A stretch of DNA of 64,000 nt, from assembly GCA_963422735.1 (NCBI GenBank), contig OY730476.1, forward strand, positions 2,368,001 to 2,432,000. Direction: 5' to 3'. The position numbers and the translations under genes are program-made. Shown here piece by piece: positions 9,204 to 39,598 of the stretch. The notes below the pieces were generated by a model, which worked only from the letters and a program-made list of their open reading frames with translations, did no database searches and was not told the origin of the DNA. Positions within the stretch are counted from its first letter, which is position 1. The number at the start of each line of letters is the position of its first letter. Origin of the DNA: Candidatus Latescibacterota bacterium. GTDB taxonomy: Bacteria > Latescibacterota > UBA2968 > UBA8231.

Positions 9204-9215
9204 TGCAGTGAATAT

Positions 9216-10542: not shown

Positions 10543-10548
10543 AGACGC

Positions 10549-11160
10549 TTATGGCTCGGCTAGGATGGCGCGATGACGACCGACGCCGACGTCGGGCAAC
10601 CGGTAGAGGAAATTGTTCCTCAGCTTCTCGACACCTGTCTTGGTTATTGATGCCGTGGGCGTCCTGCGCGAATCACCCGTGCGGCTTGAGAATGACCAAT
10701 CCGCTTCGTCGAGCTTGGCGCAGAGGATTTCGAGAAATGTCAGCGGCGCAGAAGCCCCTTTTTCCTGCTCGCCAATCGCATAGCGAAATACCATTAGCCA
10801 GCAGTCTTCCGGATTGTGCCCCTGCCAGCCGCCGCTCTGAATGGACGACTTAATTTCGATACCCTCGTCGTCCTTCAACACTAGATTTGATGCGTAATGG
10901 CCTTGCGGCAGCAGGTCGGGATGTCCTCCCGCCTTCGCATTCGTCTCCAGTGATCCAGCAGCGCGGGCGATATTCTTTACGAGAAACTCGGAAATCATGC
11001 CGGACAGCGAATTGCCCAGCAGCAACTCCTCCAATGGACGAAAACCATTGCTTTCGAGGAAGTCGTTCAATCCGTGAAAAAGTCGGTACGTCTCCGCCAC
11101 CGCCTGTTCTATTTCTTCTACTTTGAGTCCGTAGCGACGCGACGATTCACGTAGCGGGGA
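10549..11160 (-). pseudogene. Putative type II restriction endonuclease (PD-(D/E)xK), 5' end probably disrupted
   Basis: HPDLL...GIEIKSS; convergent with the MTase. The frame is open only to a TAA at 11161 with no ATG, and overlaps the end of the upstream gene. Confidence 0.6.
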
Positions 11161-23859: not shown

Positions 23860-24933
23860 TTATTTGTGTGCGCGCCACAGCAACACCAAGGCCAAGGCGG
23901 CAAACAGCAGGTTGGCTATCCATGCGCCCAGCCAAGGCGCGAGTACCTGATTCCAACCGAGGGCTTGGCCGGCCTTGACGCAACTGTAATAAGCAAAGCA
24001 TAACAGAACCCCCAAGCCGAAGCTATTGGCCAAGCCAGCGCGGCGGGCGTTGGCACCGAGAGTCGCGCCGAGGGCGATGATGATGAAGCTGGTCAGGGGA
24101 AAGGATATTTTCAGGTGCAAATCGACTCGGTGGCGCGTAGCGTCCTCCCCGTTGAGCGTGGCGCGAGCGATGTAGTCGGCCAGCTCAGCGTAGTTCATTT
24201 CCTCGGGGTCCTTCTGCTGGCGGGCAAAGTCGCTGGGGAGCAACGACAAGCTCGGCAGGGATAAGGTATCGAAGGAAGAAGTCGCCACGGCTTCGCCCGC
24301 GGCAAAGCGAAAGCGGCGGCCTTCGCTGAGTACCCAAGTGCCCTCCCGCCATTCCATGCGCCGGGCCACCGCGCGCTCCAATGGGACATAGCCGTGCAGC
24401 CGCTCCCAAGACACTTCATCGGCGCGTTGCCGCCCCGCGTCGTAGCTGCGGGCGTACACGAACTGGTTGCCCGCGTCTTGGAGCAGGACTTGGCGGCGGG
24501 AGCCGTCGCTGCGGTGATAGGACTTAATCTCGTCGCTAATTTGATTGTACCGATAGGTGGCGGCCGGGACTACCCAGTCAGTAAAGAAAAAAGCCGCGAC
24601 CGCAACGGCTAGAGCACACGCCAAGACCGGGACTAGCAGGCGATATAGGCCAACGCCGGTGGCCTTCATGGCGGTGATCTCGTTTTGGCGCGCCAAGCTG
24701 GTCAGGGCAAAGAGCGCGCCGAGGAGCGCGGCGATGGGCAAGGTCAGGATGAGCCAGTACGGCACCCGATAGACGTAGTAGAGCAATATCTGCTTGGGGC
24801 GAGCCTCAAAGTCGATAAAAGTGTCGATGTTTTCGGTGAGGTCGATGATCACCGCAATGAGCAACAGGCTGACCACGGCGATCCCCAGACATAGCAGGAA
24901 GCGACGCGTCAGATAGAGATCGAGGGTGTGCAT
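23860..24933 (-). CDS. lptG: LPS export permease LptG
   Basis: LDLYL, NEITAMKATG, KISFP; multiple TM segments; paired with lptF. Confidence 0.85.
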   Translation of the reverse strand: MHTLDLYLTRRFLLCLGIAVVSLLLIAVIIDLTENIDTFIDFEARPKQILLYYVYRVPYWLILTLPIAALLGALFALTSLARQNEITAMKATGVGLYRLLVPVLACALAVAVAAFFFTDWVVPAATYRYNQISDEIKSYHRSDGSRRQVLLQDAGNQFVYARSYDAGRQRADEVSWERLHGYVPLERAVARRMEWREGTWVLSEGRRFRFAAGEAVATSSFDTLSLPSLSLLPSDFARQQKDPEEMNYAELADYIARATLNGEDATRHRVDLHLKISFPLTSFIIIALGATLGANARRAGLANSFGLGVLLCFAYYSCVKAGQALGWNQVLAPWLGAWIANLLFAALALVLLWRAHK

Positions 24934-24934
24934 C

Positions 24935-26233
24935 TCAGGTCTTTTTCGTCCCTCGGCGTCCAGCGCGGTCGTACGCGACTACCCGCAACAGCCCCCATCC
25001 GGCGAGGGCGAAAACCAGATTGGGGGCCCACATCGCTAAAGGCGGCGGGATATAGCCGCGGTCGGCCAATTCCTCGCCGCCGATGAGGAACATCCAGTAT
25101 ATCCAAAAGAAGAACAGGCTGACGCCGACGGAGACGGCTGCACCGCGCCGGCGAATTAGCCCGCCCAATGGGGCACCGACCAACGCGAAGACCAAGCAGG
25201 CGGCCGGGATGGATAGCTTCTTGTGAATCTCGACCAAGTATTCGTTGATCCGCCCCGTGCGGCGGTCTATGTGCCGCCACTGTCGGCGCAGGGCCTCGGC
25301 CGCCTGTTGCCCTTCTCGCTCTAGCTCGCCGGCCGTGGAGTCGGCGAACTGGCTTTGGTGAAGTTTGAGGTAGCGCGTGGCAATCGAATCGAGGTGGCCG
25401 TAGGCGCGCTCTTGCTCTCGGCGGTGCTCTAGCACCGAGCGGCGCATGGACGCAATGTTTAGCTCGCGGTCGCTGCGGTAGGACGAGGGGCGGTGCTCGT
25501 AGCGGCGGCGCTCGTCCTTGATGTGCAGCACTTGACGGGCAAAAGTGCCGTAGAAAAAGCGCTCCTCTAGGCCGGATTCGACGCGCTGGACATGGCTTTC
25601 CTCCAACTCCAAGCGGATGTAAGCCCCATCTCCCAGTAGCGCGAGGCGGCCCCTGGGGGCGTGGAGAATCACCGGCGGCCCGGGGCGCGAGGCGTCGTAG
25701 AGCGCGATGCCAGCCAACTCGTTAGTCGCCGGGTCAATCTGGCGGATGAGCAGGTGATAATCGCCCAAGTTGGGTATGAAGACCCCTTCCTTTTTCCGCA
25801 GCACTAAGGCCGCCTTCGTCCGTTGCAAGCTCGACGACAGGACGCGAGCTTGGTGGTTCCAGTCCGGGAGGATCTGGTCGTTAAAAAGGACCATCAGCAG
25901 GGTGAGCAGAAAAGCGGCTATAAGCACCGGCCGCAGGAGTAGCCAAAAGCTCACTCCGCAGGCTTTGGCCGCGATAATTTCCCCGTCGGCGGCGAGGCGG
26001 GCAAAGGCCATGAGCACGGCGATGAGCACGGCCATGGGCACGGCCAGAGCTACAATCCAAGCCAAGTTGAAGAGCAAAAGCTGGAGGGCGGCCAGCAGGG
26101 TCAGCCCCTTGCTCAGCACTTGGTCCATCGTCTGCAATACGACGTCGATTAGCAGGATGAAAAGGATCAGCGCAAAGCCGAGCGCAAAGGGCCAGCCATG
26201 TTCTTTAAGCACGTAGCAGGACAGGGTCGTCAT
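24935..26233 (-). CDS. lptF: LPS export permease LptF
   Basis: AVPMAVL, EIIAAKACG, EIHKKLSIP, AMWAPN. Confidence 0.85.
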   Translation of the reverse strand: MTTLSCYVLKEHGWPFALGFALILFILLIDVVLQTMDQVLSKGLTLLAALQLLLFNLAWIVALAVPMAVLIAVLMAFARLAADGEIIAAKACGVSFWLLLRPVLIAAFLLTLLMVLFNDQILPDWNHQARVLSSSLQRTKAALVLRKKEGVFIPNLGDYHLLIRQIDPATNELAGIALYDASRPGPPVILHAPRGRLALLGDGAYIRLELEESHVQRVESGLEERFFYGTFARQVLHIKDERRRYEHRPSSYRSDRELNIASMRRSVLEHRREQERAYGHLDSIATRYLKLHQSQFADSTAGELEREGQQAAEALRRQWRHIDRRTGRINEYLVEIHKKLSIPAACLVFALVGAPLGGLIRRRGAAVSVGVSLFFFWIYWMFLIGGEELADRGYIPPPLAMWAPNLVFALAGWGLLRVVAYDRAGRRGTKKT

Positions 26234-26404
26234 GGGTAGCAAGGGATACGGGGCTGTGGTGCGTGGCACTCAGGACACCTCGTCGCAAGCGGCGAGCACC
26301 CGGATGGCCACGGGCATAGTTCTCTCAAATATAACGACTTAGGCCATCGGCCAAAAAAACGCTCTCCGCGCCGTGCAATGGGAACGGTTTTTGCAAGGGT
26401 TTCC

Positions 26405-26433
26405 TTGAAATAATCGCAGCCACGTGCTATGTT
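26405..26433 (+). promoter_or_regulatory. Putative sigma70 promoter of the sprA operon
   Basis: TTGAAA-N17-TATGTT with an extended TG; about 270 nt upstream of the sprA start. Confidence 0.5.
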
Positions 26434-26706: not shown

Positions 26707-29700
26707 GTGAATTTAGAGGTGTTTCTCCGCTTTTCCGTCCAAGCGTTTTCCTCGTGGCTGTGTATTTGCTCGCTCGCGGCGGTGGCACACGCCGAGCCTG
26801 GCCTGCACTTTGAGCCACTATACGGCCCGCTTTCCCAACGCTTTGCGGTCCCTCGCCAAGCCGCCTTTGGGGCTGACCAACCGCTCTTGCCCGCCCCCAG
26901 CCGCGCGCTGATCTCGTACCAAGCCACAGTGGACTCCGTGGGAATGGCCCACTACAGTCGCCGCGTCAGTGGGTTCACCGAGAGACCGACGGTCGCCGTG
27001 GCTTTAGACGACTATCTCCGCATGGAATATCAAGCCAAGCACCGACAGCTTTGGCACCAGCAAATCCGCCGCGACTTTCGCAGCACGGCCTCAGAGCAGC
27101 GCCGGCGCAAGGGCAGCCGCTTCGAGTGGACTGTGCCTTTTTCCGCGCCCAAGCCCCTGCAGCGCTTTATCGGCGACGAAGGTCCCAGCCTCGTGCTCAA
27201 CGGCTCGCGCACCATCATCATTTCTGGCAAGAGCGAGTGGACCGACGGCGAGGTGCAGACCTCGTTTGGACGGAGCTCGAAGTTCCCCGCGCTGGGCATC
27301 GAACAGGAGTCCGATTTCACGGTGGAAGGCAAAGTCGGCGAATTGATCAGCGTACGCATCGACCAAGACACCCAAGACTTCGGCTCGGCCCTTGGCTCCA
27401 ATTTGGGCGATCAGCTATCCAACCAGATCAAGCTCGACTACGACGGCGAAGAAGACTCCATATTCCAAGAGGTGCAGGCCGGCAACACCACCCTAGAGCT
27501 ACCCAATACGCGCTTCGTCGGCTTCCGGCAGAAGAACAAGGGTCTCTTCGGCATCCGCGCTAAGGGACACATCGGTCCGCTGGCCTTTACGACCGTAGCC
27601 AGCCACGAAAAGAGCAAGTCCAACCGCCAGACCTTCAAAGGCGGAGCGGCCATTGACACGCTCCAACTCAAAGACTACCAATACATCCGCAACACGTATT
27701 TCTTCTTGCACGAATTCTACCGCGCCCACCTCCTCGACTTCCGCGGGCTGTTGGACGGAGCGCAGTTTGGCTCGGAAAACTTCGTCGATATCAGCCGTCT
27801 CGAAATCTATATCAATGACTTCAATACGCGGAATGACGCCGAGTTGTTCGCCAAGCCCGGCACGGCTTGGGTCGATCCGTCCGACTCCCTCGCCACTATC
27901 GAGTGTTTTGACGCGGCGGGCAATCGCCTGCGCAATAGCGGCTGTTTCGAGGAGGGGACCTGGCACCGGCTCGACCCGGACGACGACTATGCAGTCGTAG
28001 CCGAGGCGGGTTATATCATCCTCAACAGATCCGTATCCGACCCGTATGCCATGGCCGCGCATTTCAAAACTCGCGCGCCGGACTTCGACGGTACCCTCCA
28101 ACACGAGACGGCTCGGCTCAACGCCAGTGCAGAATCCGACTCCCTGCACCTGAAGCTGATCAAGGCCCGCAACGCCCGTCCGGGTTTTCCCACTTGGAAC
28201 CTAGAGTGGAAAAACGTGTACCGCATTGCCTCCGGGTATTCCACCGGTCGCCGCTTCGATCCCAAGACTTTGCAAGTCGATATCGCCAAGGAAGTGCCCG
28301 GCCAAGAGGACCAACTTTCGCAAGAGGGCCAATCCTACTTGCAGATTTTGGGCTTGGACGAGCGCGGCAAAGACCCCGGCAGCGCACCCGACCGCGTCGT
28401 CGATGCCGACTACATAGGGCTAGACGACATCCGCGGGCACTTGATTTTCCCCGACCAGCGGCCCTTTGATCCACGCTCCAACAAATATCGCGACCTGCTC
28501 GACGAACCCGTCCCCGCCATCTACGACGAGCAGCAGCAGCGCGCCCAGATCGAGGCCAGCCGCTACAAAATCCTCGTTCGCGCTGCCTCCTCGGATCAGC
28601 GCATTCGGCTGGGCGGCATCTTCGGCAATGTCCGGCCCGAGACCGTGGAGGTCCAGCTAAACGGTCGCCCACTGGCGCGAGACACCGAGTACCGAGTCGA
28701 TTTCACGGGCAGCGTGACGTTTGTCGGCGCAGTCGCTCAGGAAGTGGCCGACCCTGGTGCCGACTTGGAAATCTCCTTTGAGTCCGAGGACGTCTTCAAC
28801 ATCGGCAGCCAGCAGAAGACCCTGTTGGGCCTGCGCACCGAGTACGAATTTTGGGGGGGCGACGGGCGAGTGGGTAGCACCATGATCTACAACAACGAGC
28901 GTTCGAGCGACCGGCGGGTGCGGGTGGGCAACGAGCCGAAGCGCACGGTGATATGGAATTTCGATTTGCGCGCTCGGCGCGAGGTGCCAGCCCTTACCCG
29001 CGTCGTCGATATGCTGCCGTTGGTCAAGACGGCAGTTCCCTCAGAAGTGACCTTAGACGCCGAAGTCGCGCAAAGCCGCCCCAATCTCAACACCAAGGGA
29101 CGCGGCTACATCGACGACTTTGAAGACAGCGAGCGGCCCTCCTCACTGGTCGTCAACCGCACGCGCTGGGCACCGGCCAGCGCACCAGCCAGCGTACGCT
29201 TCGGCGCAGAGAACCGCACGCGCTTCATCTGGTACAATCCCTACGACGGGGTACTGCGCACCGACATTTGGCCCAACCAAGAAGAGCAAATCGAAGCCCA
29301 AAACCGGCGCACCGACATCCTGTCGCTAGAGCTGACGCCACTCCTCGAAGCCGCCGAGTCCTGGGGAGGAATCACCCTCGCCTTCTCAGCCGTCAACGAC
29401 TTCTCCGAGTCCAAGTTCCTAGAGATATGGGTCCGGGGACGGGAGGGCACCTTGCACCTGAACTTGGGCGACCAGATCGACGAGGACTACATCGCCAACG
29501 GCCGCCTCGATACCGAAGACATACCTTTCCCTGGGCAAGCCGCGGGCGATGGGTTGGTAGAGCGGAAGGAAGATGTGGGCATCGACGGCCGCAACGACGA
29601 GGCCGAGTTGAACTTCTACTTGCGGCTGCAAGACGCCCAGTTCGACACCACCCGCTCCCTAGCCGAGCGGAAGCAGGCATTCGCCGCGCTCTACCCAGAC

Positions 29701-32700
29701 GCCGATCCCCTGCGCCCCAACCGCTCGCCCGATGATCCCGAAGGGGACAACTGGAAATACGACTTCCAGCGCAACAAGAACGATTACAGCCATATCAACG
29801 GAACCGAGAACAACAAAAAAGACCTCGATAGCGGCGACCGCCCGGACACGGAAGATCTCAACGACAACGGCGTGCTCGACCGGCGCAACAATTACTACCA
29901 CTACGAGATCGACCTATCCTCGAGCCACTACGAGGTCGCCGGCACCCAAAACGAGGGCTGGCGCCAGCTTCGGGTGCCTCTGTTTGGCCCCCACGTCGAG
30001 CGCGTGGGCTTGCCCGACTCCACCCGCATCGAATACGCGCGCCTGATGCTTTCGAGCGGGCCGCGGCCGGGTGTAGAGGACCCCGTGCGGGCCGAGATTG
30101 CGCTCGTGGAGATCGTGGGCAACAAGTGGCAAGAAGACGACGTAGTGCGGCTCGACGAACGCTTCCCGATCAGCGACCGCGAAGCCCTCGATGTCACGGT
30201 CATCGGCACAGACAAGAGCCAGAGCTATCGGCCGCCACCCGGCGTAAAGATCCGCCGCAACGTGCAGTCGCGCACCCGCGAACGCGAGCAGTCCCTCGTG
30301 CTCGCCTACGAAAACCTAGAGCCTGGGCACCAGATGTCGGCGACTAGAATCCTGACCCGCTCGGCCAATTACACCAGCTACGAGCGGCTGCGCATGTATG
30401 TCTATGGAGATTCGACTGAGACCATTGAATACGCACACGGCGATTCGAGCGACTTGGTGCTCTTCGTGCGCTTTGGTGTGGATTCGACCAACTACTACGA
30501 AGCCATCAGCCCTATCTTCCCGGGTTGGTCAGGAGGGCGTAAGGGCTGGAAGGGCAATCAAATAGATGTAGATCTGCCAGTCATCTCCCAGCTCAAGGCC
30601 CTGCTGCAATCCGGGCGAGCCGATACCACCACCGGCGAGTTCTACTACACCTATCGGGTAATCGATCCGCGCGGGGCACCGCTAGACGGCAAGACCGAGA
30701 TCGCCCAACGCGAATTAGAGGTGCTCCACTCGGCCGGCTACGACCCCCAAGTAGAGCACTTTTCCCTAGATCAGGTCTTTGCGCGGTCGGGCCTGCGCAG
30801 CGGCGAGGAAGCCATTTACCGGGTGCGCGGCAACCCGTCGATGCAGTCGATCAAACAACTGAGCATCGGCCTGCGCAACCGGGCCGCAATTCGTGCGTAC
30901 AGTGGCCGCGTCTTCCTCGACGAGCTCCGCCTCGACGAGGCGCGCAACGATCCCGGGCTAGCCGCGTACGCCCATCTCAACACCAAGCTGGCCGACTTTG
31001 CCAACCTCGGCGGCAACGTGCTCTGGCGGCAGGAAAATTTTCGCAGCTTTACCGGCCAAGGAGGCAACAGCACGGACCGCGAAGCCGCGCTATCGGTCTC
31101 CACCAACGCGCAAAAGCTCCTGCCGAGTAGCTGGGGATTTTTGATCCCGCTCAAGGTGAACCTCAGCCGCACGACCAGCCTACCGCGCTTCGGTCCCGGG
31201 TCGGATGTGGAGCTAACCGACGAAGAGAAGCTAGAGCAACAGGCGGTTCGCTCCAAGGAATTCTACGACGTGTCCATCAGCCGACGGCAGGGCAAAAACT
31301 TCCTCTTGCGTTGGACCCTCGACCAGATGAACCTGAGGCTCTCGCATTCGCGCGAACATAGCTCGGATCCGGTGCGCCCGATCAACGAGCGCGAGGCACA
31401 GACGATGAGCTTCAACTACAGCATGCCCCTGCCCAAACCGGCACTGCGGATCATGGGCTGGCTACCGACGTTCATGCCCAAAGGCTGGACGCGGATGAAG
31501 TTCCGTCCGCTGCCTACGAGCCTGACCTACGCGGTCAACGGCAGCCGGCGGACTTCGCGGCTTTTGCGCCGCGGCGACGACGAGCCGACCGAGCAGGAGG
31601 ACTTTACGCTCGTCGAAACCTATGCCTCTAAGCTCAATCCGCTCTCCGGTCTATCGGCCAACTACAACCTCAAAATCGACCGAGACTTGCGGAAAAAATT
31701 CGTCCTCGACAAGCGGAGCTTTGGGCGCGAGGTCGGGCGCAGACAAACGGCCGACCTCGGCTTTTCGCTGCGCTTAGTCTCGTGGCTGGACCAAAACTAC
31801 ACCTTCAAAGCCAATTACGAGGAACAGAACGACCCGGCGCAGCAGCGCGGAGTAGCCCCGATCGATTCGATCAGCGGCCTGCCGTTCAAGACCCTCGAAA
31901 TCCGCAACCAAAACGACCTCTCCGCACGCCTCAATCTCAAAATCCCAACCCTGCTCAAGAACTTGGGCAAGTCCCCGAGGCAAAGCCGCAAAGCGCAGCG
32001 GCGCGACGACCTAAATCGAGACCGCAACCAAGACATAGACGAGGAGGCGCCAACCTCGGAGGGAAACCAAGCCGAGAAAAAGAAAAGCCAAGCCGAGCCG
32101 CCGCAAGGCCCCAATATCCTCCGCCGCCTCGCCGGGTGGACCGGCCGCCTCGTCGAGCCGGTCAACGCCAGTTGGCGACGCAACACCAATTCGGATCACT
32201 TCAACTTGCTGCATCGGCCTTCGCTCTCCTATCAACTCGGCCTCGAAGACACCCTGCGGGTGCGGCAAGTGACCCAAGGGCTGACCCACCAAGACAGTTG
32301 GACGCACACGGCCTCGTTTGAGACCGGCTCGGGGATGCGGTTGCCCTTTGGCATTAGCGTCAAGGTTAACTCCAAGGAGCAGACCACAAAGCGCAGCGGT
32401 GCTTCGCAGCAACGACTGCGACTGCGCAACGAGCGGACTTACCCGCGCGTGAGCCTTAGCTGGGGACGCGCCGACCGGATTCCCTTAATAAAGAGAGTGA
32501 TCAATAGCGCGCAGGTAAACGCAAGTTTTGAGACCTCGGAGGCCAGCGAGGGCGAGGGTAGCCTCACGCCCGGCTACCTGCTCTCCGAGGAGACCAAGAC
32601 CGAGTTTAGGGCGTCGTGGAACGGCCGTTGGCGCTGGGGACCAACGACGACCATCGAGCGCGTGATTTCCAACTCGGAGAGCCGAGATTTTGAACCAACC

Positions 32701-33069
32701 GCAGCGGGCGACGGCACGCAGCCCCTGCGCGGCACCCGCGACAGATCGCGCGTGACCACCACGTTCAAGATCACCCATAGCCTCAAGCCGCGGCGGCTGC
32801 CCCTGATAGGCCGGCTCAAAAGCGATGTCACTCTCAATTTGGAACAGAAATTTGAAGGAGAAACGCGCTCTATCGCCACGGGCGACGAAGAGCGCGTCCC
32901 CAACGACAAAGAGAACATTTGGCGCACGCAGTTGACCATGACCTATAACTTCAGCGCGAACTTCCGCGGCGAGGGGCGGATTCGCATCGAGAACAACAAG
33001 GACCACCTGCGAGACAAGACGCGGAAGATCCGCGAGGTGCGGCTTTCGGGCACGTTTTTCCTCCGCTGA
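26707..33069 (+). CDS. sprA: SprA/Sov-like type IX secretion outer-membrane translocon
   Basis: 2120 aa with signal peptide; NQIKLDYDGEEDSI.QEVQAGN..L.LP, GLFGI, GYIDDFE, PDTEDLNDNG, DELRL; amphipathic beta strands; ends ...TFFLR. Confidence 0.85.
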   Translation: MNLEVFLRFSVQAFSSWLCICSLAAVAHAEPGLHFEPLYGPLSQRFAVPRQAAFGADQPLLPAPSRALISYQATVDSVGMAHYSRRVSGFTERPTVAVALDDYLRMEYQAKHRQLWHQQIRRDFRSTASEQRRRKGSRFEWTVPFSAPKPLQRFIGDEGPSLVLNGSRTIIISGKSEWTDGEVQTSFGRSSKFPALGIEQESDFTVEGKVGELISVRIDQDTQDFGSALGSNLGDQLSNQIKLDYDGEEDSIFQEVQAGNTTLELPNTRFVGFRQKNKGLFGIRAKGHIGPLAFTTVASHEKSKSNRQTFKGGAAIDTLQLKDYQYIRNTYFFLHEFYRAHLLDFRGLLDGAQFGSENFVDISRLEIYINDFNTRNDAELFAKPGTAWVDPSDSLATIECFDAAGNRLRNSGCFEEGTWHRLDPDDDYAVVAEAGYIILNRSVSDPYAMAAHFKTRAPDFDGTLQHETARLNASAESDSLHLKLIKARNARPGFPTWNLEWKNVYRIASGYSTGRRFDPKTLQVDIAKEVPGQEDQLSQEGQSYLQILGLDERGKDPGSAPDRVVDADYIGLDDIRGHLIFPDQRPFDPRSNKYRDLLDEPVPAIYDEQQQRAQIEASRYKILVRAASSDQRIRLGGIFGNVRPETVEVQLNGRPLARDTEYRVDFTGSVTFVGAVAQEVADPGADLEISFESEDVFNIGSQQKTLLGLRTEYEFWGGDGRVGSTMIYNNERSSDRRVRVGNEPKRTVIWNFDLRARREVPALTRVVDMLPLVKTAVPSEVTLDAEVAQSRPNLNTKGRGYIDDFEDSERPSSLVVNRTRWAPASAPASVRFGAENRTRFIWYNPYDGVLRTDIWPNQEEQIEAQNRRTDILSLELTPLLEAAESWGGITLAFSAVNDFSESKFLEIWVRGREGTLHLNLGDQIDEDYIANGRLDTEDIPFPGQAAGDGLVERKEDVGIDGRNDEAELNFYLRLQDAQFDTTRSLAERKQAFAALYPDADPLRPNRSPDDPEGDNWKYDFQRNKNDYSHINGTENNKKDLDSGDRPDTEDLNDNGVLDRRNNYYHYEIDLSSSHYEVAGTQNEGWRQLRVPLFGPHVERVGLPDSTRIEYARLMLSSGPRPGVEDPVRAEIALVEIVGNKWQEDDVVRLDERFPISDREALDVTVIGTDKSQSYRPPPGVKIRRNVQSRTREREQSLVLAYENLEPGHQMSATRILTRSANYTSYERLRMYVYGDSTETIEYAHGDSSDLVLFVRFGVDSTNYYEAISPIFPGWSGGRKGWKGNQIDVDLPVISQLKALLQSGRADTTTGEFYYTYRVIDPRGAPLDGKTEIAQRELEVLHSAGYDPQVEHFSLDQVFARSGLRSGEEAIYRVRGNPSMQSIKQLSIGLRNRAAIRAYSGRVFLDELRLDEARNDPGLAAYAHLNTKLADFANLGGNVLWRQENFRSFTGQGGNSTDREAALSVSTNAQKLLPSSWGFLIPLKVNLSRTTSLPRFGPGSDVELTDEEKLEQQAVRSKEFYDVSISRRQGKNFLLRWTLDQMNLRLSHSREHSSDPVRPINEREAQTMSFNYSMPLPKPALRIMGWLPTFMPKGWTRMKFRPLPTSLTYAVNGSRRTSRLLRRGDDEPTEQEDFTLVETYASKLNPLSGLSANYNLKIDRDLRKKFVLDKRSFGREVGRRQTADLGFSLRLVSWLDQNYTFKANYEEQNDPAQQRGVAPIDSISGLPFKTLEIRNQNDLSARLNLKIPTLLKNLGKSPRQSRKAQRRDDLNRDRNQDIDEEAPTSEGNQAEKKKSQAEPPQGPNILRRLAGWTGRLVEPVNASWRRNTNSDHFNLLHRPSLSYQLGLEDTLRVRQVTQGLTHQDSWTHTASFETGSGMRLPFGISVKVNSKEQTTKRSGASQQRLRLRNERTYPRVSLSWGRADRIPLIKRVINSAQVNASFETSEASEGEGSLTPGYLLSEETKTEFRASWNGRWRWGPTTTIERVISNSESRDFEPTAAGDGTQPLRGTRDRSRVTTTFKITHSLKPRRLPLIGRLKSDVTLNLEQKFEGETRSIATGDEERVPNDKENIWRTQLTMTYNFSANFRGEGRIRIENNKDHLRDKTRKIREVRLSGTFFLR

Positions 33070-33101
33070 GCATATTGCTCGGCGCGGCTGTGGGAGATAT
33101 T

Positions 33102-33467
33102 TTGTTCAATCAACGCGAGCAACGCGCTCTCATTGGTCTAGCGGCGACCCTGCTCATAGGGATGCTCGTCGCCGTAAGCGACTGGTATCGCCCATCGCAT
33201 TCAGAGGAATTTAGCGTCGTGCCGCGCGCGGTCGCTCCGCCGCTACCGCTCGCAGTGGTAAAAGCTGAACAGGGGCCGCTCCCGCTCAATTCGGCTACGG
33301 TCGCCGAGCTAGTCGCGCTGCCGGCAATCGGCCCCAAGATCGCCGAGCGGATCGTCGCCTTTCGCCGCGCGCACGGTCCTTTCGAGCGGCTAGAGCAACT
33401 AATCGAAGTCCATGGCATCGGCGCGAAGACGCTAGAAAAGCTCCGTCCTTTGCTCATAGTGGAGTAG
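33102..33467 (+). CDS. comEA: ComEA family helix-hairpin-helix DNA-binding protein, N-terminal TM anchor
   Basis: LNSATVAELVALPAIGPKIAERIV...GPF...LIEVHGIGAKTLEKL; TTG after GGAGA. Confidence 0.85.
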   Translation: MFNQREQRALIGLAATLLIGMLVAVSDWYRPSHSEEFSVVPRAVAPPLPLAVVKAEQGPLPLNSATVAELVALPAIGPKIAERIVAFRRAHGPFERLEQLIEVHGIGAKTLEKLRPLLIVE

Positions 33468-33491
33468 AGGCACACTTCGCAGGAGAAGGGG

Positions 33492-34385
33492 TTGGGATTG
33501 TTTGGATTTGGCAGAACAAAGGCCACCGGGATCCACATCAGTGGCAAGACCGTGCGCGTCGCTGCCCTAGACGCTGGACGCACTGGCATCCGACCGCTGA
33601 TTTTGGCGACCGACGAATTGGAACGGCCCTTCGACCCGGTAGCCCTGAGCGACGATCAGCAGCGGCAAGAGCTAGCCGCCAAGCTAGCCGCGCTCGCGGC
33701 GACGTACGACGTTGACTACAGCAACGCCTGTTTTTCGCTAGACCGGCGCTTGGGCCTCATTCAGCGTCGGCCCCTCGTAGCGGGGACTGTGCGCGAAAAC
33801 CGCGAACAACTCCTGTGGGAATCCGAGCAGATCTTGGCCGGGGAAGCTCGGGCGTTTAGCTGCGATTTTGCGCTGACCTCGCAGTGGGGCTTTGTGGTCG
33901 CGGCTCGCCACCGCGTCCTCGAATACTACCGCACCCTAGGCAAGGAGACGGCGGTCGGTCGGCTCAATGTGGATTTGGTGCCTTTTGCCCTGTACAACGC
34001 CAGCGAATGCGCTAACCTGCTCGCCAAAGATAAGTTGTCGCTCCTGATCTACGCGGATATGGGCGAGGCTTGGCTCCTGCTAATAGAGGAAGGCGAACTA
34101 GCTGCGCTGGCCAGTTGTGTCTGGGAGGAAGAGGACGACGCGCCCGAAGCCTTAGAAGGCGCGGCGCACAAGCTGCTGAGCGAGGGCAGCAGCAGCCTCC
34201 AGCACCTTTGGGGTGCCGGTGTCCCGTATTGGAGCGAGGGCTTGGCCGCGCATTTGGGGGTGCCGCATTCAATCCTCGATCCACTCGCCGCGGTCAGTCC
34301 CAAGCTGCTCGGCGACGCCATGCCCGCGCAGCGATCCGAGTATGCCATTGCCGTCGGGCTAGCTCAGCGGGAGTTGGTGCGATGA
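33492..34385 (+). CDS. PilM-like actin-fold protein
   Basis: N-terminal GIHISGKTVRV, VDLVPFALYNA, C-terminal LDPL...YAIAVGLAQR as in PilM. Confidence 0.65.
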   Translation: MGLFGFGRTKATGIHISGKTVRVAALDAGRTGIRPLILATDELERPFDPVALSDDQQRQELAAKLAALAATYDVDYSNACFSLDRRLGLIQRRPLVAGTVRENREQLLWESEQILAGEARAFSCDFALTSQWGFVVAARHRVLEYYRTLGKETAVGRLNVDLVPFALYNASECANLLAKDKLSLLIYADMGEAWLLLIEEGELAALASCVWEEEDDAPEALEGAAHKLLSEGSSSLQHLWGAGVPYWSEGLAAHLGVPHSILDPLAAVSPKLLGDAMPAQRSEYAIAVGLAQRELVR

Positions 34386-35566
34386 TCCGCGTCGAGCTTC
34401 TCGGGCGGCGGCGGTCGCCTTGGTCAAGAGCCTTTCTTGCGGCCCTAGTCGTCTGTGGGGGACTATACGGGATTTACCAGCTTTTCCCCGCACTGGCGGG
34501 GTCGCTTTTCAACGCGGATTTCGCCCTCAGTTCCATGGCGCAGCAAGAAGCTACCCCAAGTTCCGTAGAACAAGAGATTGCTCCCAAGCCTGTGGAGCGG
34601 CAAGAGACCGACCCTAGCCCCTTGGTGCAACAAGAAGAGGTTCCCCATAGTTCCGTGGCACAGCAAGAGGCTATCCCAAGCACTGTAGTGCCGCAAGAAA
34701 TCGAGCCCAAGCCAGTGGTGGTACTGCAAGAGGCCATCCCAAGTTCTGGGATGCAGCAAGAGACTACGCCTAGCCTTTTACAAGAGATCGATCAAAAGCC
34801 CGCGGCACAGCAAGAGACCATGCCTAGCCCTGTGGCGCAGCAAGAGATCACCTCTAAACCCGTGGCACGGCAAGAGACCACCCCAAGTCCCGGGGTGGCG
34901 CAACAAGAGGCCACGCCGAGTCCTGTGCAAGAGATCGCACCAGATCCCGTCGTCCAACGAGAAGCCCCGACGACGCACCAACCCCCCTCGCCCCAGCGCA
35001 GCACGGCCTGTCATCAAGTCATGCGGATTGACAAACAGGTTCCCGCTGGGACTCGCGTGGCTTCGCTGAACTGCAATTCGACCGGGGAGTACTGGCTGGA
35101 GGGAACCAGCCCCTCGCACAAAGTACTGCGCGAGTTCAGGCTTCGCTTGCAGGCGTTGCCATCGCGGGTTTCGTTTTCGACTTGGCGGGAGGAGCGCACT
35201 CTGCGCTTTGCATTCCAAGGCCGCCTTGCCGAGCGAGACAACTCTCCACTGGCCGCCCTCTCGTCTGGCCAAGCGGAGCAATTCCTCCGCAAGGTGGCCC
35301 ACTGGGCCGACGCGAGTGGCCTAGACAGCCTGTCAATCCACAAGCCTATCCATAGGTCCTTGTCGCCGGCGCGCACCCACCAGCGGCAAAAATTGCGGGG
35401 CATTGGGTCCCTTCAGCAGATCGGCACCTTCTTGCACCAGTTTCAACAGTACGAGGCGGTCGCGACCCTCGGCGAGGTTTTGCTCATGCCCATCAAAAGC
35501 GACGAACGCGGCTGGGTCCAAGCGCGGCTCTACGCGGCCGTGGACATCTTAGTAGAAGTACCCTAA
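34382..35566 (+). CDS. PilN/PilO-like bitopic protein with Q/E/P repeat linker
   Basis: MIRVELL (PilN-like INLL), TM helix, repeat linker, then PilN-like (VPAGTRVASL..YWLEGTS) and PilO-like (ASGL...GSLQQIGTFL) segments. Confidence 0.55.
   Translation: MIRVELLGRRRSPWSRAFLAALVVCGGLYGIYQLFPALAGSLFNADFALSSMAQQEATPSSVEQEIAPKPVERQETDPSPLVQQEEVPHSSVAQQEAIPSTVVPQEIEPKPVVVLQEAIPSSGMQQETTPSLLQEIDQKPAAQQETMPSPVAQQEITSKPVARQETTPSPGVAQQEATPSPVQEIAPDPVVQREAPTTHQPPSPQRSTACHQVMRIDKQVPAGTRVASLNCNSTGEYWLEGTSPSHKVLREFRLRLQALPSRVSFSTWREERTLRFAFQGRLAERDNSPLAALSSGQAEQFLRKVAHWADASGLDSLSIHKPIHRSLSPARTHQRQKLRGIGSLQQIGTFLHQFQQYEAVATLGEVLLMPIKSDERGWVQARLYAAVDILVEVP
34535..34975 (+). repeat. Intragenic imperfect ~30-bp tandem repeat (14-15 units, VxQQE(T/A/I)xP(S/K)P)
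   Basis: CAAGAR core recurring about every 27-33 nt, in frame. Confidence 0.85.
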
Positions 35567-36057
35567 TGAACAACGCAGACGCGGCCATCTATCCCGGCAG
35601 CTTCGACCCGATCACCTTTGGCCACCTGAACATCCTAGAGCGGGCCTTGGACATCTTCTCCCAAGTCACCCTGCTGGTGGCGATCAATCCCAACAAAGAG
35701 CCGCTCTTTTCGCTGGAGGAGAGCCGGGCGATGATCTCCGAGGCCATTAGCCACTGGGCTCAAGCCAAGGTCGATTTCCACGACGGCCTGACCGTTGACT
35801 ATGCGCGACAGCACAACATACACACGGCCGTGCGGGGCCTGCGGGCGGTGACCGACTTCGAGAACGAGTTTGCCATGGCCTTGACCAACCGCTCGCTGTG
35901 GCCAGAGTTCGACACGGTCTTTCTAATGACCAAGGCAGAGTACATGTATCTCAGTTCGTCGGTCGTGCGCCAAGTGGCGCAAATGGGCGGGCAGTTAAAC
36001 CAGTTCGTGCCGCCTTGTATCGAGCGACGCCTGCGGGAAAAATTCCAAAATGCCTGA
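35566..36057 (+). CDS. coaD: Pantetheine-phosphate adenylyltransferase
   Basis: YPGSFDPITFGH, RGLRAVTDFENE, LSSSVVR. Confidence 0.96.
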   Translation: MNNADAAIYPGSFDPITFGHLNILERALDIFSQVTLLVAINPNKEPLFSLEESRAMISEAISHWAQAKVDFHDGLTVDYARQHNIHTAVRGLRAVTDFENEFAMALTNRSLWPEFDTVFLMTKAEYMYLSSSVVRQVAQMGGQLNQFVPPCIERRLREKFQNA

Positions 36058-37126
36058 GTCCCAACGCGAAGTGCAGGCCCTCCTCGCGCTGAGCCAAGCC
36101 GAGCGGCTCGGGCGCGTGCGGCGCTTGCTCTCCCACTTTGGCTCGGCGCAAGAGGCCCTCGCCGCCGCCGATTGGACTGCTGCCGTAGGGGCCAATGCAT
36201 CCGAGCGGCGTCCTACGCAGGCCGACTTCGCTTGGGCCGCCGATCAATGGCAAAGACTCTGCGCGTCCGGCGGCCGCTGCCTAGCCCCGCCGGACGCGGA
36301 TTATCCCCAACTACTGGGCCAAATCGCCGCGCCGCCCCCCGTGCTGTTTGCGCTGGGCCCAGACGACTTGACCCCTCCTACCGTGGCCATCGTCGGCTCG
36401 CGCAAAGCATCGGATAGCGGCAAACTGATCGCCGGCGAGCTGGCTCGCGGTCTAGTGGCTCAAGGCATCTGCATCGTCAGCGGCTTGGCTTTCGGCATCG
36501 ATGCGGCCGCCCACGCGGCTGCGCTCGCGGCTGGCGGGCGCACCATCGCCGTATTGGGCTGCGGGGCCGATGTGCCCTATCCTCGCGCCCACACCCAGCT
36601 CTATCGCCAAATCCGCGAGCACGGTGCCATCATCTCCGAGTTTGCTTGGGGGGCACAGCCGGAGCGGGGAGCCTTCCCCCGCCGCAACCGCATCATCAGC
36701 GGGCTAAGCTTGGGGGTGATCATCGTCGAGGCCCCGCAAAAAAGCGGCGCACTGATTACGGTCCAACACGCACTGGATCAAAACCGCGAGGTATTCGCCG
36801 TGCCCGGGGACGTGCGCTCGGGCCGCAACGCGGGCTGTCACCGGCTAATCAAAGACGGGGCGAAGCTGGTCGAGGGCGTGGAGGATGTGCTAGAGGAATT
36901 GGCCATGTGGGCGGCACCGCGCCCGCAAAGCGCGCCCGCGCCTGTTCTTCCCCCGGAAGAAGAAAGCGTCTATGCCCTGCTCTCGCGCCAACCCCGGCAC
37001 ATCGACGAACTCGCCCAAGACAGCGCCCTGCCGCCTGCGACCCTGCTCGACGTGCTGCTGAGGTTGGAACTCGAAGGGCTGGTAGATCAGCTCGCGGGCA
37101 AGCGATTTTTGCGGCGAGCGGGATAA
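36050..37126 (+). CDS. dprA: DNA-processing protein DprA
   Basis: AIVGSR, VSGLAFGIDAAAH, FPRRNRIISG, SGALIT, REVFAVPG, C-terminal wHTH. Confidence 0.95.
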   Translation: MPESQREVQALLALSQAERLGRVRRLLSHFGSAQEALAAADWTAAVGANASERRPTQADFAWAADQWQRLCASGGRCLAPPDADYPQLLGQIAAPPPVLFALGPDDLTPPTVAIVGSRKASDSGKLIAGELARGLVAQGICIVSGLAFGIDAAAHAAALAAGGRTIAVLGCGADVPYPRAHTQLYRQIREHGAIISEFAWGAQPERGAFPRRNRIISGLSLGVIIVEAPQKSGALITVQHALDQNREVFAVPGDVRSGRNAGCHRLIKDGAKLVEGVEDVLEELAMWAAPRPQSAPAPVLPPEEESVYALLSRQPRHIDELAQDSALPPATLLDVLLRLELEGLVDQLAGKRFLRRAG

Positions 37127-37465: not shown

Positions 37466-39598
37466 TCAAAAGCCCAAGGCCGTGCCGACTTGGTACGTCG
37501 CCAGTGCGCCGACATAAGCGAGGGTCGTCATATAGCCAAAGCTAAACAGGGACCAGCGATAGGAGCCGGTCTCTTTTTGTATGACGACTAGGGTCGAGAG
37601 GCACTGGGCGCAGAGGGCGAAGAAAACCATGATTGACAGCGCCACCGGCAGGGTGTAAATCGGGCGGCCATCCGGCCAAGTAGCGGCGGCCAAGGTCGTG
37701 TGCAGGCTCTCGGATTCTTCGTCCTCACCCGCGCCGAGGCTATAGATAGTGCCCAAGGCCGAGATGATGACTTCGCGGGCCGGAAAAGAGGCGATGACCG
37801 CCATGCCGATGCGCCAGTCCCATCCCAAAGGACGCACGGCCGGCGCGACCCAGTGCCCGGCTTGGCCGAGATAGCTGTTTTCTACCAGCTCGGCCGCTTG
37901 GTGCTTTTCCAAGGCGTCGAGGGCTTGGGGCGCGACCGCTTGGCGCTCAACTTGGTGGCGCTCGATCACGTCTGCCGAGCGCGGGAAGTACGCCAGCGCC
38001 CACATCGCAATAGTCGTCGCCAAGATGAGACTGCCGGCGCGGACGACAAAGGCCCGGCTGCTGTGGTACACGCGCAGCAGCACCGTGTGCAGGTTGGGCG
38101 TCTTGTAGGAAGGCAGTTCCAGCAGAAAGGGCGGGGGATCTCCCTCGAGCAAGGTCCGCTTGAGCAACCAAGCCATCGGGATGGCGACGAGCGCACCGAG
38201 GCAGTAGAAGGCAAACAGGGTCAGAGCCTGCAAGCCGATGATCCCCCCCCACAGCGAGCGGTCTGGGACAAAAGCCCCGATGAAGAGCACGTACACCGGT
38301 AGGCGCGCCGAACAGCTCATCAGCGGTGCGACCAAGATGGTGGCAAAGCGGTCGCGCCGGTCTTCAATGGTGCGAGTGGCCATAATGCCCGGGACGGCGC
38401 AGGCAAAGCTGGACAGCAGGGGAATGAAGGCCGTGCCGGAAAGCCCCACGCGGGTGAGCAGCCGATCCATCAACAGCGCGGCCCGAGCCATGTAGCCGCT
38501 GTCTTCGAGTAGGGCGATAAAAAAGAATAAGATGGCGATCTGAGGCAGAAAGATGAGCACGCCGCCAACGCCGGCGATGAGGCCATCGACGACAAGGCTT
38601 TGCAGGGGGCCGGGAGGGATAAGCGCCACGGCGCGGGCGCCGCAGGCGGCAAAGAGCACGTCAACTCCATCCATCAGTGGCCCGGACCAAGTGTAAATGG
38701 CTTCGAAGACCAAGACGTTGATCAGCACAAAAATCGCCGTGCCGAAGAGGCGGTGCGCGAGAATGCGGTCGGCCCGATCCGAGCGGCGACCCTCTAAGCG
38801 GTCGGGCTGGGAAATAGCACGCGAGAGCAGGCCGTCGATCCAAGCATAGCGAGCGTTGCTTTCTAACTCGGAAAGGGAATCCGCGCCAGCCGTACGCAGG
38901 CGGTCCAAGTGGTCAGCGGTGCCATCACCAGCGAACTCCAACAGGCGGCGCTCGGCATAGCCGTCTTCATCAACTAGGGCACGCAGGGCCTCTACTGAGG
39001 AGAGCGGCTCGGAGACTGCGGCTTGCAACTCGGCTGTGGCGCGCTGAAGCTGATCGGGCAGTTCCACCCGCTGCGGTCGCGTGGGTGACGGACCCGCGTT
39101 CAAAGCCGCTAAAGTACGCCGCAGGTCATCCAACCCCTGCCGGCGATGGGCGCAGATCGGCACCACCGGTACGCCGAGCGCCTCAGACAAGGCACTAGAG
39201 TCAATGCGAATGCCCCGCCGGACTGCTATATCCCCCATATTGAGGACGACAACCAAGGGCACATCTATTTCTGCGAGCTGGGAAACTAAGTAGAGGTTGC
39301 GCCGCAGGTTGCTGGCATCGACGACCGCCAAGATGCCATCTATGGGCGGCGCGTCTTGCTGTTGGCCCAAGAGCACGTCAATGGCCAGCATCTCGTCGGG
39401 AGAGTGCGCGGCAAGGCTATAGGCACCGGGCAGGTCAATCAGGTCTAGCGAGTCTTCCCCATCCAGCGTCAGGGTCCCCGCTTTGTGTTCCACGGTGACG
39501 CCCGGATAGTTACCGGCGCGCTGCGAAAGGCCGGTCAGGGCGTTGAAAAGCGTGGTCTTGCCCGTGTTGGGGTTGCCGATAAGTGCGAGGGTCCGCAC
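37466..39598 (-). CDS. feoB: Ferrous iron transporter B
   Basis: GNPNTGKT, NYPGVTVE, DLPGAYSL, LEDSGYMARAA, PLMSCSARLP. Confidence 0.96.
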   Translation of the reverse strand: MRTLALIGNPNTGKTTLFNALTGLSQRAGNYPGVTVEHKAGTLTLDGEDSLDLIDLPGAYSLAAHSPDEMLAIDVLLGQQQDAPPIDGILAVVDASNLRRNLYLVSQLAEIDVPLVVVLNMGDIAVRRGIRIDSSALSEALGVPVVPICAHRRQGLDDLRRTLAALNAGPSPTRPQRVELPDQLQRATAELQAAVSEPLSSVEALRALVDEDGYAERRLLEFAGDGTADHLDRLRTAGADSLSELESNARYAWIDGLLSRAISQPDRLEGRRSDRADRILAHRLFGTAIFVLINVLVFEAIYTWSGPLMDGVDVLFAACGARAVALIPPGPLQSLVVDGLIAGVGGVLIFLPQIAILFFFIALLEDSGYMARAALLMDRLLTRVGLSGTAFIPLLSSFACAVPGIMATRTIEDRRDRFATILVAPLMSCSARLPVYVLFIGAFVPDRSLWGGIIGLQALTLFAFYCLGALVAIPMAWLLKRTLLEGDPPPFLLELPSYKTPNLHTVLLRVYHSSRAFVVRAGSLILATTIAMWALAYFPRSADVIERHQVERQAVAPQALDALEKHQAAELVENSYLGQAGHWVAPAVRPLGWDWRIGMAVIASFPAREVIISALGTIYSLGAGEDEESESLHTTLAAATWPDGRPIYTLPVALSIMVFFALCAQCLSTLVVIQKETGSYRWSLFSFGYMTTLAYVGALATYQVGTALGF

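Follow-up and report, generated by a model that had tools for sequence, protein, structure and literature searches.

The window analyzed here is a stretch of 64,000 nucleotides, positions 2368001-2432000 of the 4.95-Mb single-contig genome (completeness 95%, contamination 5.3%) of a Candidatus Latescibacterota bacterium. The subject of this analysis is a run of six plus-strand genes at 26707-37126, in the order sprA, a comEA-like gene, X, Y, coaD and dprA, where X stands for the PilM-like product of the gene at 33492 and Y for the product of the gene at 34382, in which PilN-like and PilO-like parts are fused. The genes are closely packed, as a preliminary description of the window had reported, and their open reading frames (ORFs) lie where it had placed them. 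Its last four intergenic gaps (24, -4, -1 and -8 nt) stand, while its first, 32 nt, holds only if the comEA-like gene starts at an alternative TTG at 33102; with the TTG at 33075 the gap after sprA is 5 nt. The start of Y is set at 34382, rather than at 34070 where the longest ORF begins, because 53 aligned homologs open at the MIR start. The features are as follows, with context at the end.

26707..33069, plus strand: sprA, type IX secretion system (T9SS) outer-membrane translocon, 2120 aa (TIGR04189, Pfam SprA_N)
33075..33467, plus strand: comEA-like gene, 130 aa from TTG 33075, with a membrane helix at the N-terminus and a helix-hairpin-helix DNA-binding domain at the C-terminus
33492..34385, plus strand: X, PilM paralog with a predicted actin-like fold, 297 aa (structure model, Foldseek, VIA-align, profile)
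34382..35566, plus strand: Y, predicted bitopic PilN-PilO fusion, 394 aa from ATG 34382 (fold, Pfam scores of orthologs)
34430..34486, plus strand: putative membrane helix of Y, about residues 17-35, from hydrophobicity in the translation and alignment, with no predictor used
34514..34999, plus strand: putative periplasmic Pro/Gln/Glu-rich repeat spacer of Y, from the translation; its length varies among homologs
35000..35230, plus strand: Y domain 1, predicted ferredoxin-like, resembling the GspL periplasmic domain and PilN (structure model, VIA-align)
35249..35563, plus strand: Y domain 2, predicted PilO/GspM-like (structure model, VIA-align)
35566..36057, plus strand: coaD, pantetheine-phosphate adenylyltransferase, 163 aa (TIGR01510)
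36050..37126, plus strand: dprA, 358 aa (TIGR00732; Pfam DNA_processg_A and DprA_WH)
23860..26269, minus strand: lptF/lptG-type permease pair, divergent from sprA (Pfam LptF_LptG, 296.6 and 251.9 bits); context
26405..26433, plus strand: sole sigma-70-like promoter match 5' of sprA, weak, with no evidence of function
37466..39598, minus strand: feoB, convergent, marking the end of the cluster (Pfam FeoB_N, Gate, FeoB_C); context

SprA scores 610.6 bits against the equivalog model TIGR04189 (cut-off 200) and 86 bits against Pfam SprA_N, CoaD 189.6 bits against TIGR01510 (cut-off 103.3), and DprA 247 bits against TIGR00732 (cut-off 191.15). The second protein scores 70.4 bits against HHH_3 and 55.8 bits against TIGR00426 (cut-off 53.1), and it does not reach the full-length comE model TIGR01259 (57.8 against 152.35); it is called ComEA-like because only models of the helix-hairpin-helix region are reached. 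With this one reservation, the identities first proposed for the six genes (SprA, comEA, pilM-like, pilN/O-like, coaD and dprA) hold, through these models and through the folds described below.

Predicted folds of X and Y

X matches no model in Pfam or NCBIfam and falls short of the gathering score of PilM_2 (PF11104, 27 bits). A word-indexed search returned 71 relatives, two of them with a precomputed PilM_2 label, and 18 of the 71 were used in building an AlphaFold2 (AF2) model. The best model has a predicted local distance difference test score (pLDDT) of 83.4 and a predicted template-modeling score (pTM) of 0.85, the other four being poorer (68.8-45.4). With this model as query, PilM proteins took the first ten places among the Foldseek hits (E 3e-18 to 2e-15), ahead of FtsA; the DUF3822 protein BT_3980 (3hrg) was matched at E 2.2e-10 (TM-scores 0.51/0.57) and the cytoplasmic domain of EpsL at 1.9e-8. 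Structural alignment by VIA-align gave Z 26.0 for Thermus PilM 2ych (root-mean-square deviation, rmsd, 3.1; 281 of 297 residues), Z 25.4 for Myxococcus PilM 3jc8, Z 24.1 for the Pseudomonas PilM:PilN complex 5eou and Z 20.7 for the best FtsA; the first 50 rows do not include 3hrg.

Sequence comparisons point the same way. The X family profile finds Myxococcus PilM among PDB sequences at 9.8e-8, and the HMMER alignment of X with PilM has in common the stretches 'WEAEQ' and, toward the C-terminus, 'AVGLA.R'. PilM_2 is weakly matched by three of 18 close members of the family (best E 8.5e-6), and four orthologs identified by position score above its cut-off of 27, namely L054 (51.7 bits), L056 (49.4), L068 (43.4) and L104 (98.2). 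A language-model atlas places X among PilM clusters at 0.95. The predicted fold and the profile matches thus show X to be a PilM paralog. The preliminary description had allowed that the actin-fold gene could be DUF3822-like; X is nearer to PilM both by Foldseek (3e-18 against 2e-10) and by VIA-align (Z 24-26). The Pfam model of DUF3822 (PF12864) matched none of the 18 family members and none of 11 proteins in the X position; a search with it found matches in zero of five genomes, and in zero of 31 genomes in the class of a metagenome-assembled genome (MAG) titled Winogradskyella (G168), a class of 1-3 Mb genomes whose SprA resembles that of loci titled Marinimicrobia and which is probably not Bacteroidota. 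The first phosphate loop of X reads 'GihIsg' opposite 'GLDIGS' in PilM; with His in place of the Asp, X may be unable to bind or hydrolyze ATP.

Y likewise matches no model in Pfam or NCBIfam. The chain starts with MIRVELLGRRRS and continues through one hydrophobic helix and about 160 residues of Pro/Gln/Glu-rich repeats to a C-terminal part of 188 residues. M1, I2 and L6 are each kept in 90% or more of 53 sequences, and this conserved N-terminus presumably resembles the PilM-binding N-terminus of PilN. Homologs of Y are 309-465 aa long, and the repeat spacer is where their lengths differ. In the window the spacer (34514-34999) is made of imperfect 'QQE-x-x-PSPV'-like repeats, including an array with a 30-nt period at 34781-34877, and it varies widely in length among close relatives, suggesting expansion and contraction of the repeats. 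The C-terminal part, used as query in an exhaustive HMMER search, matched just 65 cluster representatives out of 1.84 billion, so the family is small.

Residues 207-394 of Y were modeled by AF2 with pLDDT 94.9 and pTM 0.88, all five models reaching at least 93.7. Foldseek returned nothing from the PDB at E <= 1e-3 for this head, PilO 2rjz being matched at E 0.015 with probability 1.00. The model splits into two ferredoxin-like domains, which VIA-align compared with 48,161 chains. For residues 207-283 the scores were Z 11.7 for EpsL 2w7v (rmsd 1.6, 76 residues aligned), 10.6 for XcpY 6ghu, 9.7 for PulL 8a9w and 7.2 for PilN 4bhq; for residues 290-394 they were Z 12.6 for PilO 2rjz (rmsd 2.2, 92 aligned), 12.4 for 3jc8_Oa, 10.7 for 5uvr, and 7.6 for the GspM-type proteins EpsM 1uv7 and PulM 7ze0. 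Among orthologs in the Y position, L056 (33.5) and L068 (24.5) pass the Pfam PilN cut-off (PF05137, 22.8) and L057 (20.0) fails; Pfam PilO (PF04350) is not reached by sequence, the best score being 17.8 bits, for the Y of L041, against 22. Y has the PilN/GspL layout, in which a short N-terminus in the cytoplasm is followed by one membrane helix and a periplasmic domain of ferredoxin-like fold, and its PilO-like domain is the C-terminal part of this PilN-like chain rather than a separate polypeptide with its own anchor. Models and ortholog scores show Y to be a single chain in which a PilN-type N-terminus and helix are followed by a spacer and then by two heads, one GspL/PilN-like and the other PilO-like. 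The folds suspected for the 33492 and 34382 proteins, those of PilM and PilN/O, are therefore present. A complex prediction of X with residues 1-45 of Y scored 0.00; made without controls, it speaks neither for nor against binding.

Gene order, pilus independence and selection

The phylum was sampled as 168 genomes, Latescibacterota by record titles, some of which read Gemmatimonadota or Gemmatimonadetes; such titles are unreliable guides to phylum. SprA was found in 163 of the 168 genomes, X in 131 (37 of the 52 of high quality), a secretin in 72 and T2SSE in 52. Twenty X loci were sampled from ten of the 14 families, and in all 20 of them sprA lies directly 5' of X, with SprA identity across families falling to about 30%. 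The lptFG pair is divergent in 17 loci, and 17 have comEA between sprA and X; genes farther downstream include coaD in 15 loci and dprA in 11. A Y-like gene follows X in 11 (L041-43, L045, L046, L054-58 and L060) and is missing from the sampled loci of families f2, f3 and f4. Downstream the order varies by family: rsmD-coaD follows X or Y in f2, f7, f8, f10 and f12; in f3, X is followed by coaD, a gene for an NYN-domain protein, obg and dprA; and in f4, by a 252-aa NYN-domain protein and obg, with coaD not found there.

The NYN-domain protein of f3 and f4 (L047:7855-8793, L052:8682-9437) has a coiled-coil-like N-terminal part and stands before obg, at the site that Y or rsmD occupies in other lineages.

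Thirteen further loci were taken from genomes in which the X profile failed. Two of them (L064 and L068) have the order sprA-comEA-X-Y-rsmD-coaD, with an X that the profile had missed, and three (L061, L062 and L073) have a gene of 277-278 aa without family assignment in the X position. Two others, L065 and L069, read sprA-(M28)-comEA-coaD without X, and the remaining loci have other arrangements; families f14 and f6 keep sprA-comEA-coaD without X. In L065 and L069, as in L095, L096 and L100, comEA adjoins sprA in the absence of X.

Outside the phylum, 63 of 80 loci were analyzed, after near-duplicates of the window's own genus and very short pieces had been dropped; 45 of the 63 carry neither a Latescibacterota nor a Gemmatimonadota title and are not identical to sampled loci. 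In these 45 an M28 peptidase gene is the commonest gene after sprA, in 36; comEA follows in six, and coaD and/or rsmD in five. An X-like gene is present in three, L104, L153 and L124 (the last at 2e-4); the first two had seeded the hidden Markov model (HMM), and independently of it L104 scores 98.2 bits on PilM_2 and L153 falls among MshI/HofM/PilM clusters in the atlas. In a second phylum (seven genomes, its record titled Zixibacteria, G170), four of the seven carry sprA-comEA-X-rsmD-coaD, and the sprA-comEA order also occurs in MAGs titled Zixibacteria and Ignavibacteria. Conservation of synteny in relatives, which the preliminary description had proposed as a check, is thus found within the phylum and in a second one. 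The arrangement in which lptFG diverges from sprA, comEA-like, X, Y, coaD and dprA is an ancient inherited gene order.

Two other genes of these loci deserve mention. The M28-family peptidase behind sprA, of about 300 aa, gave Peptidase_M28 scores of 116-122 bits in the three examples scanned (L095:15975-16886, L064:2237-3145, L056:11442-12341); it is also found behind sprA in some deep Latescibacterota lineages and is absent from this position in the window. We assume that it may be a glutaminyl-cyclase-type enzyme linked to the N-termini of T9SS cargo. In one deep lineage (G007), a minus-strand gene between comEA and the PilM-like gene (L056:10611-11033) encodes a 141-aa protein with a prepilin-signal-like N-terminus, for which the only family hint is a weak one (ComP_DUS, E 0.052).

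X is kept in many genomes without pilus parts. Among the 131 X-bearing genomes, 70 have neither secretin nor T2SSE, 28 have only a secretin, nine only T2SSE, and 24 both. Genera that keep X without a secretin include g24 (15 of 15 genomes), and in the window's own genus X is present in 30 of 30 genomes and a secretin in six. Where a secretin occurs in the window's own family it is solitary and distant from X (L154:9446-11464, L155:9088-11346, L159:8887-11262; 673-792 aa), flanked by glutamate synthase on one side and on the other by citrate synthase in G099 and G110 and by a transhydrogenase gene in G106, and no pilus or type II secretion system (T2SS) genes lie beside it in these three genomes. 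A proposal that the relatives' secretins belong with X/Y is therefore unsupported by position. This lone secretin has been lost from the window's genome. Conversely, G016 carries sprA-comEA-X-Y-rsmD-coaD together with a full cluster resembling those for T2SS and type IV pili (T4P), which has a PilM-PilN fusion of its own, and the four second-phylum genomes have, besides a short sprA-linked X, longer PilM genes elsewhere that are followed by PilN-like genes.

In an unrooted maximum-likelihood tree of 28 rows, in which L153 and three further rows form long branches, 19 sprA-linked proteins are split from nine other PilMs by a single branch (99/96; 98% of 200 bootstrap trees). Within the genus, pairwise comparisons with the window, which are not independent because they have this reference in common, gave ratios of nonsynonymous to synonymous substitution rates (dN/dS) of 0.34 (X, n=28), 0.37 (Y head, 27) and 0.29 (ComEA, 28), against 0.14 (C-terminal third of SprA, 27) and 0.11 (CoaD, 22). 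For X and Y the values are equal in 18 genomes without secretin or ATPase and in 9-10 with one. The X frame is open and stop-free in all 30 other genomes of the genus, in full length in 29 and split over two contig ends in G128. Because purifying selection holds in genomes without other T4P or T2SS parts, X and Y act independently of a pilus. It is a new and solid conclusion that at least two phyla have, behind sprA, a distinct, conserved, pilus-independent PilM paralog placed between comEA and rsmD/coaD, and in several lineages the paralog is accompanied by the PilN-PilO fusion.

Pilus, competence and secretion genes in the genome

No match to the secretin, to T2SSE (the PilB/T-type ATPase) or to T2SSF (PilC) was found in the whole 4.95-Mb genome, with models that in 14 named control genomes matched six, 13 and 13, respectively. 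The preliminary description had noted the lack of a secretin, and of pilP, pilQ and porKLMN, within the window; the Pfam scan of 39 further ORFs agrees (it took in 39 of the 50 greedily called ORFs of at least 100 aa and four more, the remaining seven being short or overlapping), and for the secretin the statement extends to the genome. PilM_2 has one match elsewhere, below threshold at 25.7 bits, and a separate pilMNOPQ locus was not found in the genome. The PilP model (PF04351) matched none of the 168 genomes of the phylum and no control genome either, and so is uninformative. The comEC gene, for which the preliminary description had called for a search, is intact elsewhere in the genome, with an 826-aa open frame scoring 211.7 bits.

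The T9SS is well represented on the outer-membrane side. There are 49 Por_Secre_tail matches in the genome, 45 of them above the cut-off. PorU scores 632.3 bits against a cut-off of 420 (C1:2053531-2056707), and a PorV-like gene scores 152.4 bits, under the equivalog cut-off of 250, while covering model positions 23-364 of 367. The two stand side by side on the minus strand at C1:2052354-2056707, outside the window, as they do in Bacteroidota, and four weaker PorV-like matches occur elsewhere. SprA is thus shown to have separate partners away from the cluster, in the porU-porV pair and some 45-49 tail-bearing proteins. A 677-aa protein encoded in the window at 58841-60874 ends in a FlgD_ig-type Ig domain (residues 604-654), a kind that often marks T9SS tails, and is not among the Por_Secre_tail matches.

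The inner-membrane motor was not recognized. GldL (TIGR03513) and GldM (TIGR03517) have no matches in the genome, by models without a positive control, and GldK reaches at best 65.3 bits against 350, again with no valid positive control. Across the phylum GldM was above cut-off in zero of 168 genomes by TIGR03517 and in zero of 168 by PF12081, also lacking a positive control; the class of G168, meant to serve as one, failed in that role with zero of 31. The GldL and GldM models and PF12081 matched none of the genomes scanned, and GldK was matched only below its cut-off in three named controls. Because the models lacked a positive control, the missing motor is a non-detection and not a demonstrated absence. 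On the question of a canonical T9SS, then, the components PorU, PorV-like protein and tails are in place, and GldK, GldL and GldM went unrecognized by models without positive control.

Regulatory signals and transcription add little. The one promoter that the preliminary description placed before the cluster carries no weight, since upstream of sprA one site is found against 2.3 +/- 1.6 in shuffled sequences. Terminator-like sites are likewise not above shuffles (17 against 12.0 +/- 3.4), and Rfam finds two tRNAs only, both outside the cluster region. A search for sequencing runs listed none of RNA. One run, X1, yielded 31 short contigs at least 99% alike to the region in 26 of 30 bins, one of them spanning 33377-33659 across the comEA/X junction; as the kind of this run is a guess, it does not count as evidence of transcription. 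A DNA-type run, X2, covers 30 of 30 bins, and runs X7 and X8 gave nothing.

Elsewhere in the window, 4000-10600 has a G+C content of 0.53-0.56 against about 0.61, and encodes a protein with an AbiJ N-terminal domain (5761-6264), a helix-turn-helix (HTH) regulator (9245-9874) and a DNA methylase ORF no larger than a fragment (9958-10542); this stretch may be a small defense or mobile islet. The presence of selA at 20809-22191 (L-seryl-tRNA selenium transferase, 478.8 bits) suggests that the organism probably makes selenoproteins.

Possible roles of X and Y and comparison with known systems

By analogy with the solved PilM:PilN complex, X would clamp Y at its cytoplasmic N-terminus, in the way that PilM clamps PilN, and, with His in its phosphate loop, X is probably not an ATPase. 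The fused heads of Y would form an intramolecular PilN-PilO pair, borne across the periplasm on the long Pro-rich spacer, and X and Y together would make an inner-membrane scaffold. The likeliest partner of this scaffold would be the periplasmic, DNA-binding ComEA-like protein, whose gene lies 24 nt upstream, together with ComEC and DprA, and the module might then be a pilus-less remnant of a competence-type system that organizes DNA handling at the inner membrane. This is the reading we favor, and we favor it tentatively. A ComEA partner is preferred because ComEA and PilM/N/O share a known functional context and their genes adjoin in 17 of the 20 loci, because a pilin-like gene lies between comEA and X in one deep lineage, and because comEC and dprA are present. 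The adjacency of sprA would then be inherited order rather than the mark of one machine, as it is for rsmD, coaD and obg.

Several points weigh against a partnership with the ComEA-like protein. The interaction is putative, and no result points to it directly. A path for DNA to ComEA without a pilus, a secretin or another known outer-membrane passage is hard to see. ComEA, ComEC and DprA are common also among bacteria for which transformation is not known, and so say little about competence. In three of the 20 loci (L054, L055, L060) comEA is missing and X stands right behind sprA; comEA and X are not strictly linked, because each occurs at sprA without the other. X, for its part, was never seen away from sprA (20 of 20 loci, and four of four sprA-linked loci in the second phylum), which is also what a role in the T9SS predicts, and if GldL and GldM are truly absent throughout the phylum, this T9SS would be left without any known inner-membrane part.

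Such a role would make X and Y the inner-membrane, periplasm-spanning partner of SprA in lineages without the GldLM/PorLM motor, the spacer letting the PilN/PilO-like head reach SprA or its partners as PilMNO do through PilP. The constant position of sprA, in all 20 loci and four of the seven second-phylum genomes, is in its favor, as are the failure of two models to detect GldM in any of the 168 genomes and that of the GldL and GldK models to find a valid match in the window's own genome (all without positive control), the near-universal SprA in a phylum where X and Y persist without pili, the PorU, PorV-like protein and 49 tail matches of this genome, and a spacer that looks like a periplasm-spanning linker. 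However, the link to SprA is one of adjacency, which rsmD, coaD and obg have in common with X. SprA lineages without X exist (f14, f6, and 42 of the 45 other-phylum loci, of which 36 have the M28 peptidase after sprA), Y is missing in f2, f3 and f4, the first phosphate-loop Asp of X is lost, and PilM/N/O are not, to our knowledge, known to transduce energy; nor is absence of the motor established by GldK, GldL and GldM models that lacked a positive control. We regard this role as unlikely. The broader proposal, that in Latescibacterota and the Zixibacteria-titled phylum a dedicated PilM paralog, joined in several lineages by a PilN-PilO fusion, was recruited as a SprA partner in place of a GldLM/PorLM motor, or couples SprA to ComEA-dependent DNA traffic, seems to us similarly improbable. 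The hybrid of SprA and PilMNO envisaged in the preliminary description is partly supported: the gene order is conserved in relatives, neither a separate pilMNOPQ locus nor, by models without positive control, a recognizable GldK, GldL or GldM was found, and the two proteins have PilM and PilN/O folds, while coupling to SprA is putative. A housekeeping superoperon, the other possibility it raised, fits at least as well, since rsmD, coaD, obg and dprA lie in the block and SprA lineages without X exist.

X and Y might instead be a pilus-independent scaffold unrelated to either SprA or ComEA, perhaps analogous to the DUF3822 protein found beside rsmD in Bacteroidota, an explanation we consider doubtful, yet better placed than a T9SS role. 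In the second phylum, as in families f2, f7, f8, f10 and f12, rsmD-coaD comes directly after X or X-Y; BT_3980 (3hrg) is among the Foldseek matches of the X model, with an E of 2.2e-10; and in control searches Bacteroides thetaiotaomicron has DUF3822 but no match to SprA or to T9SS tails. One preprint describes DUF3822-family and RsmD-family genes as conserved neighbors in Bacteroides (bioRxiv 10.1101/2025.05.12.653583). Against this, X is clearly closer to PilM than to 3hrg and no member of its family matches Pfam DUF3822; Y, moreover, is a genuine relative of PilN and PilO, a family that we know only from pilus and T2SS platforms. That SprA itself is the gate, with ComEA, X/Y, ComEC and DprA importing DNA through its barrel in place of a secretin, would account for a genome with no secretin yet with intact comEC, comEA-like and dprA genes, and for a sprA-comEA order kept across Latescibacterota and MAGs titled Zixibacteria and Ignavibacteria. 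It is very improbable all the same: we know of no T9SS that moves DNA, SprA here has ordinary protein-secretion partners and cargo, and relatives with an orphan secretin keep the cluster. We hardly credit, finally, the idea that X and Y remain from a lost pilus system and are turning into pseudogenes. The other pilus parts are gone from this genome, a nucleotide-binding residue of X is lost, and both proteins lie below Pfam thresholds, but X frames are open throughout the genus, dN/dS of 0.34-0.37 is not near 1, secretin-free genera such as g24 keep X in every genome, and the head of Y is modeled at pLDDT 94.9.

The T9SS has been worked out almost wholly in Bacteroidota, where the inner-membrane GldLM/PorLM motor drives secretion. 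Here is a phylum that has the pore (SprA in 163 of 168 genomes) and in which no recognizable motor was found; the sortase, a PorV-like carrier and dozens of tagged cargo proteins are present in the window's own genome, the one checked for them, and the only conserved envelope-spanning candidates beside the pore are orphan relatives of a pilus platform. Should X and Y serve SprA, they would represent a second way of connecting a T9SS to the inner membrane; should they serve ComEA, scaffolds of the PilM/N/O type would be able to outlive the pilus and act alone, which would be new for the family. In either case X and Y are a well-defined, conserved and testable pair, two small proteins with confident models. 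A literature search, which did not cover supplements, found nothing joining Latescibacter* with T9SS or 'type IX secretion', and among publications matching SprA, PilM and 'type IX secretion' none concerns a SprA-PilM link in the parts of them that were accessible. The T9SS may occur in further phyla of the Fibrobacterota-Chlorobiota-Bacteroidota (FCB) group, according to one article (PMC11285876).

Set beside known systems, the cluster agrees with the Bacteroidota T9SS in that SprA and PorU pass their models, a PorV-like gene lies beside porU, and 49 tail matches are present; it differs in its host phylum, Latescibacterota, and in that GldK, GldL and GldM were not found here, by models without positive control. 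We know of no PilM/N/O-like part in the Bacteroidota T9SS. With BT_3980/DUF3822 (PDB 3HRG), X shares an actin-like fold and, in several lineages, the rsmD neighbor reported for Bacteroides in the preprint cited above. Unlike DUF3822, however, X is much closer to PilM, and no sequence-profile match joins the two. We are aware of no PilN/O-like partner of DUF3822.

The T2SS provides the best match for Y domain 1, in GspL (EpsL 2W7V, 1YF5; XcpY 6GHU; PulL 8A9W; Z 9.7-11.7), and a match for domain 2 in GspM (EpsM 1UV7; PulM 7ZE0; Z 7.6), while EpsL's cytoplasmic domain is among the matches of the X model. In the T2SS, GspL unites the actin-like domain with the membrane and periplasmic part in one chain, GspM being a separate protein; in X and Y this split is reversed, and the genome is without GspD, GspE and GspF. 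The PilMNO platform of type IVa pili (2YCH; 5EOU, 2RJZ, 5UVR; 3JC8) offers a parallel in composition, with the PilM fold of X, the order of pilM before pilN/O, and, in Y, a MIR..L N-terminus, one membrane helix and PilN-like and PilO-like heads. The differences from it are that PilN and PilO are fused into one chain in Y, with a Pro/Gln/Glu-rich repeat spacer standing where, we presume, PilN and PilO carry a coiled coil; that the phosphate loop of X has His for Asp; that the genome is without PilQ, PilB/T and PilC; and that X and Y lie between comEA and coaD behind sprA, as a paralog apart from the canonical PilM of the same genomes.

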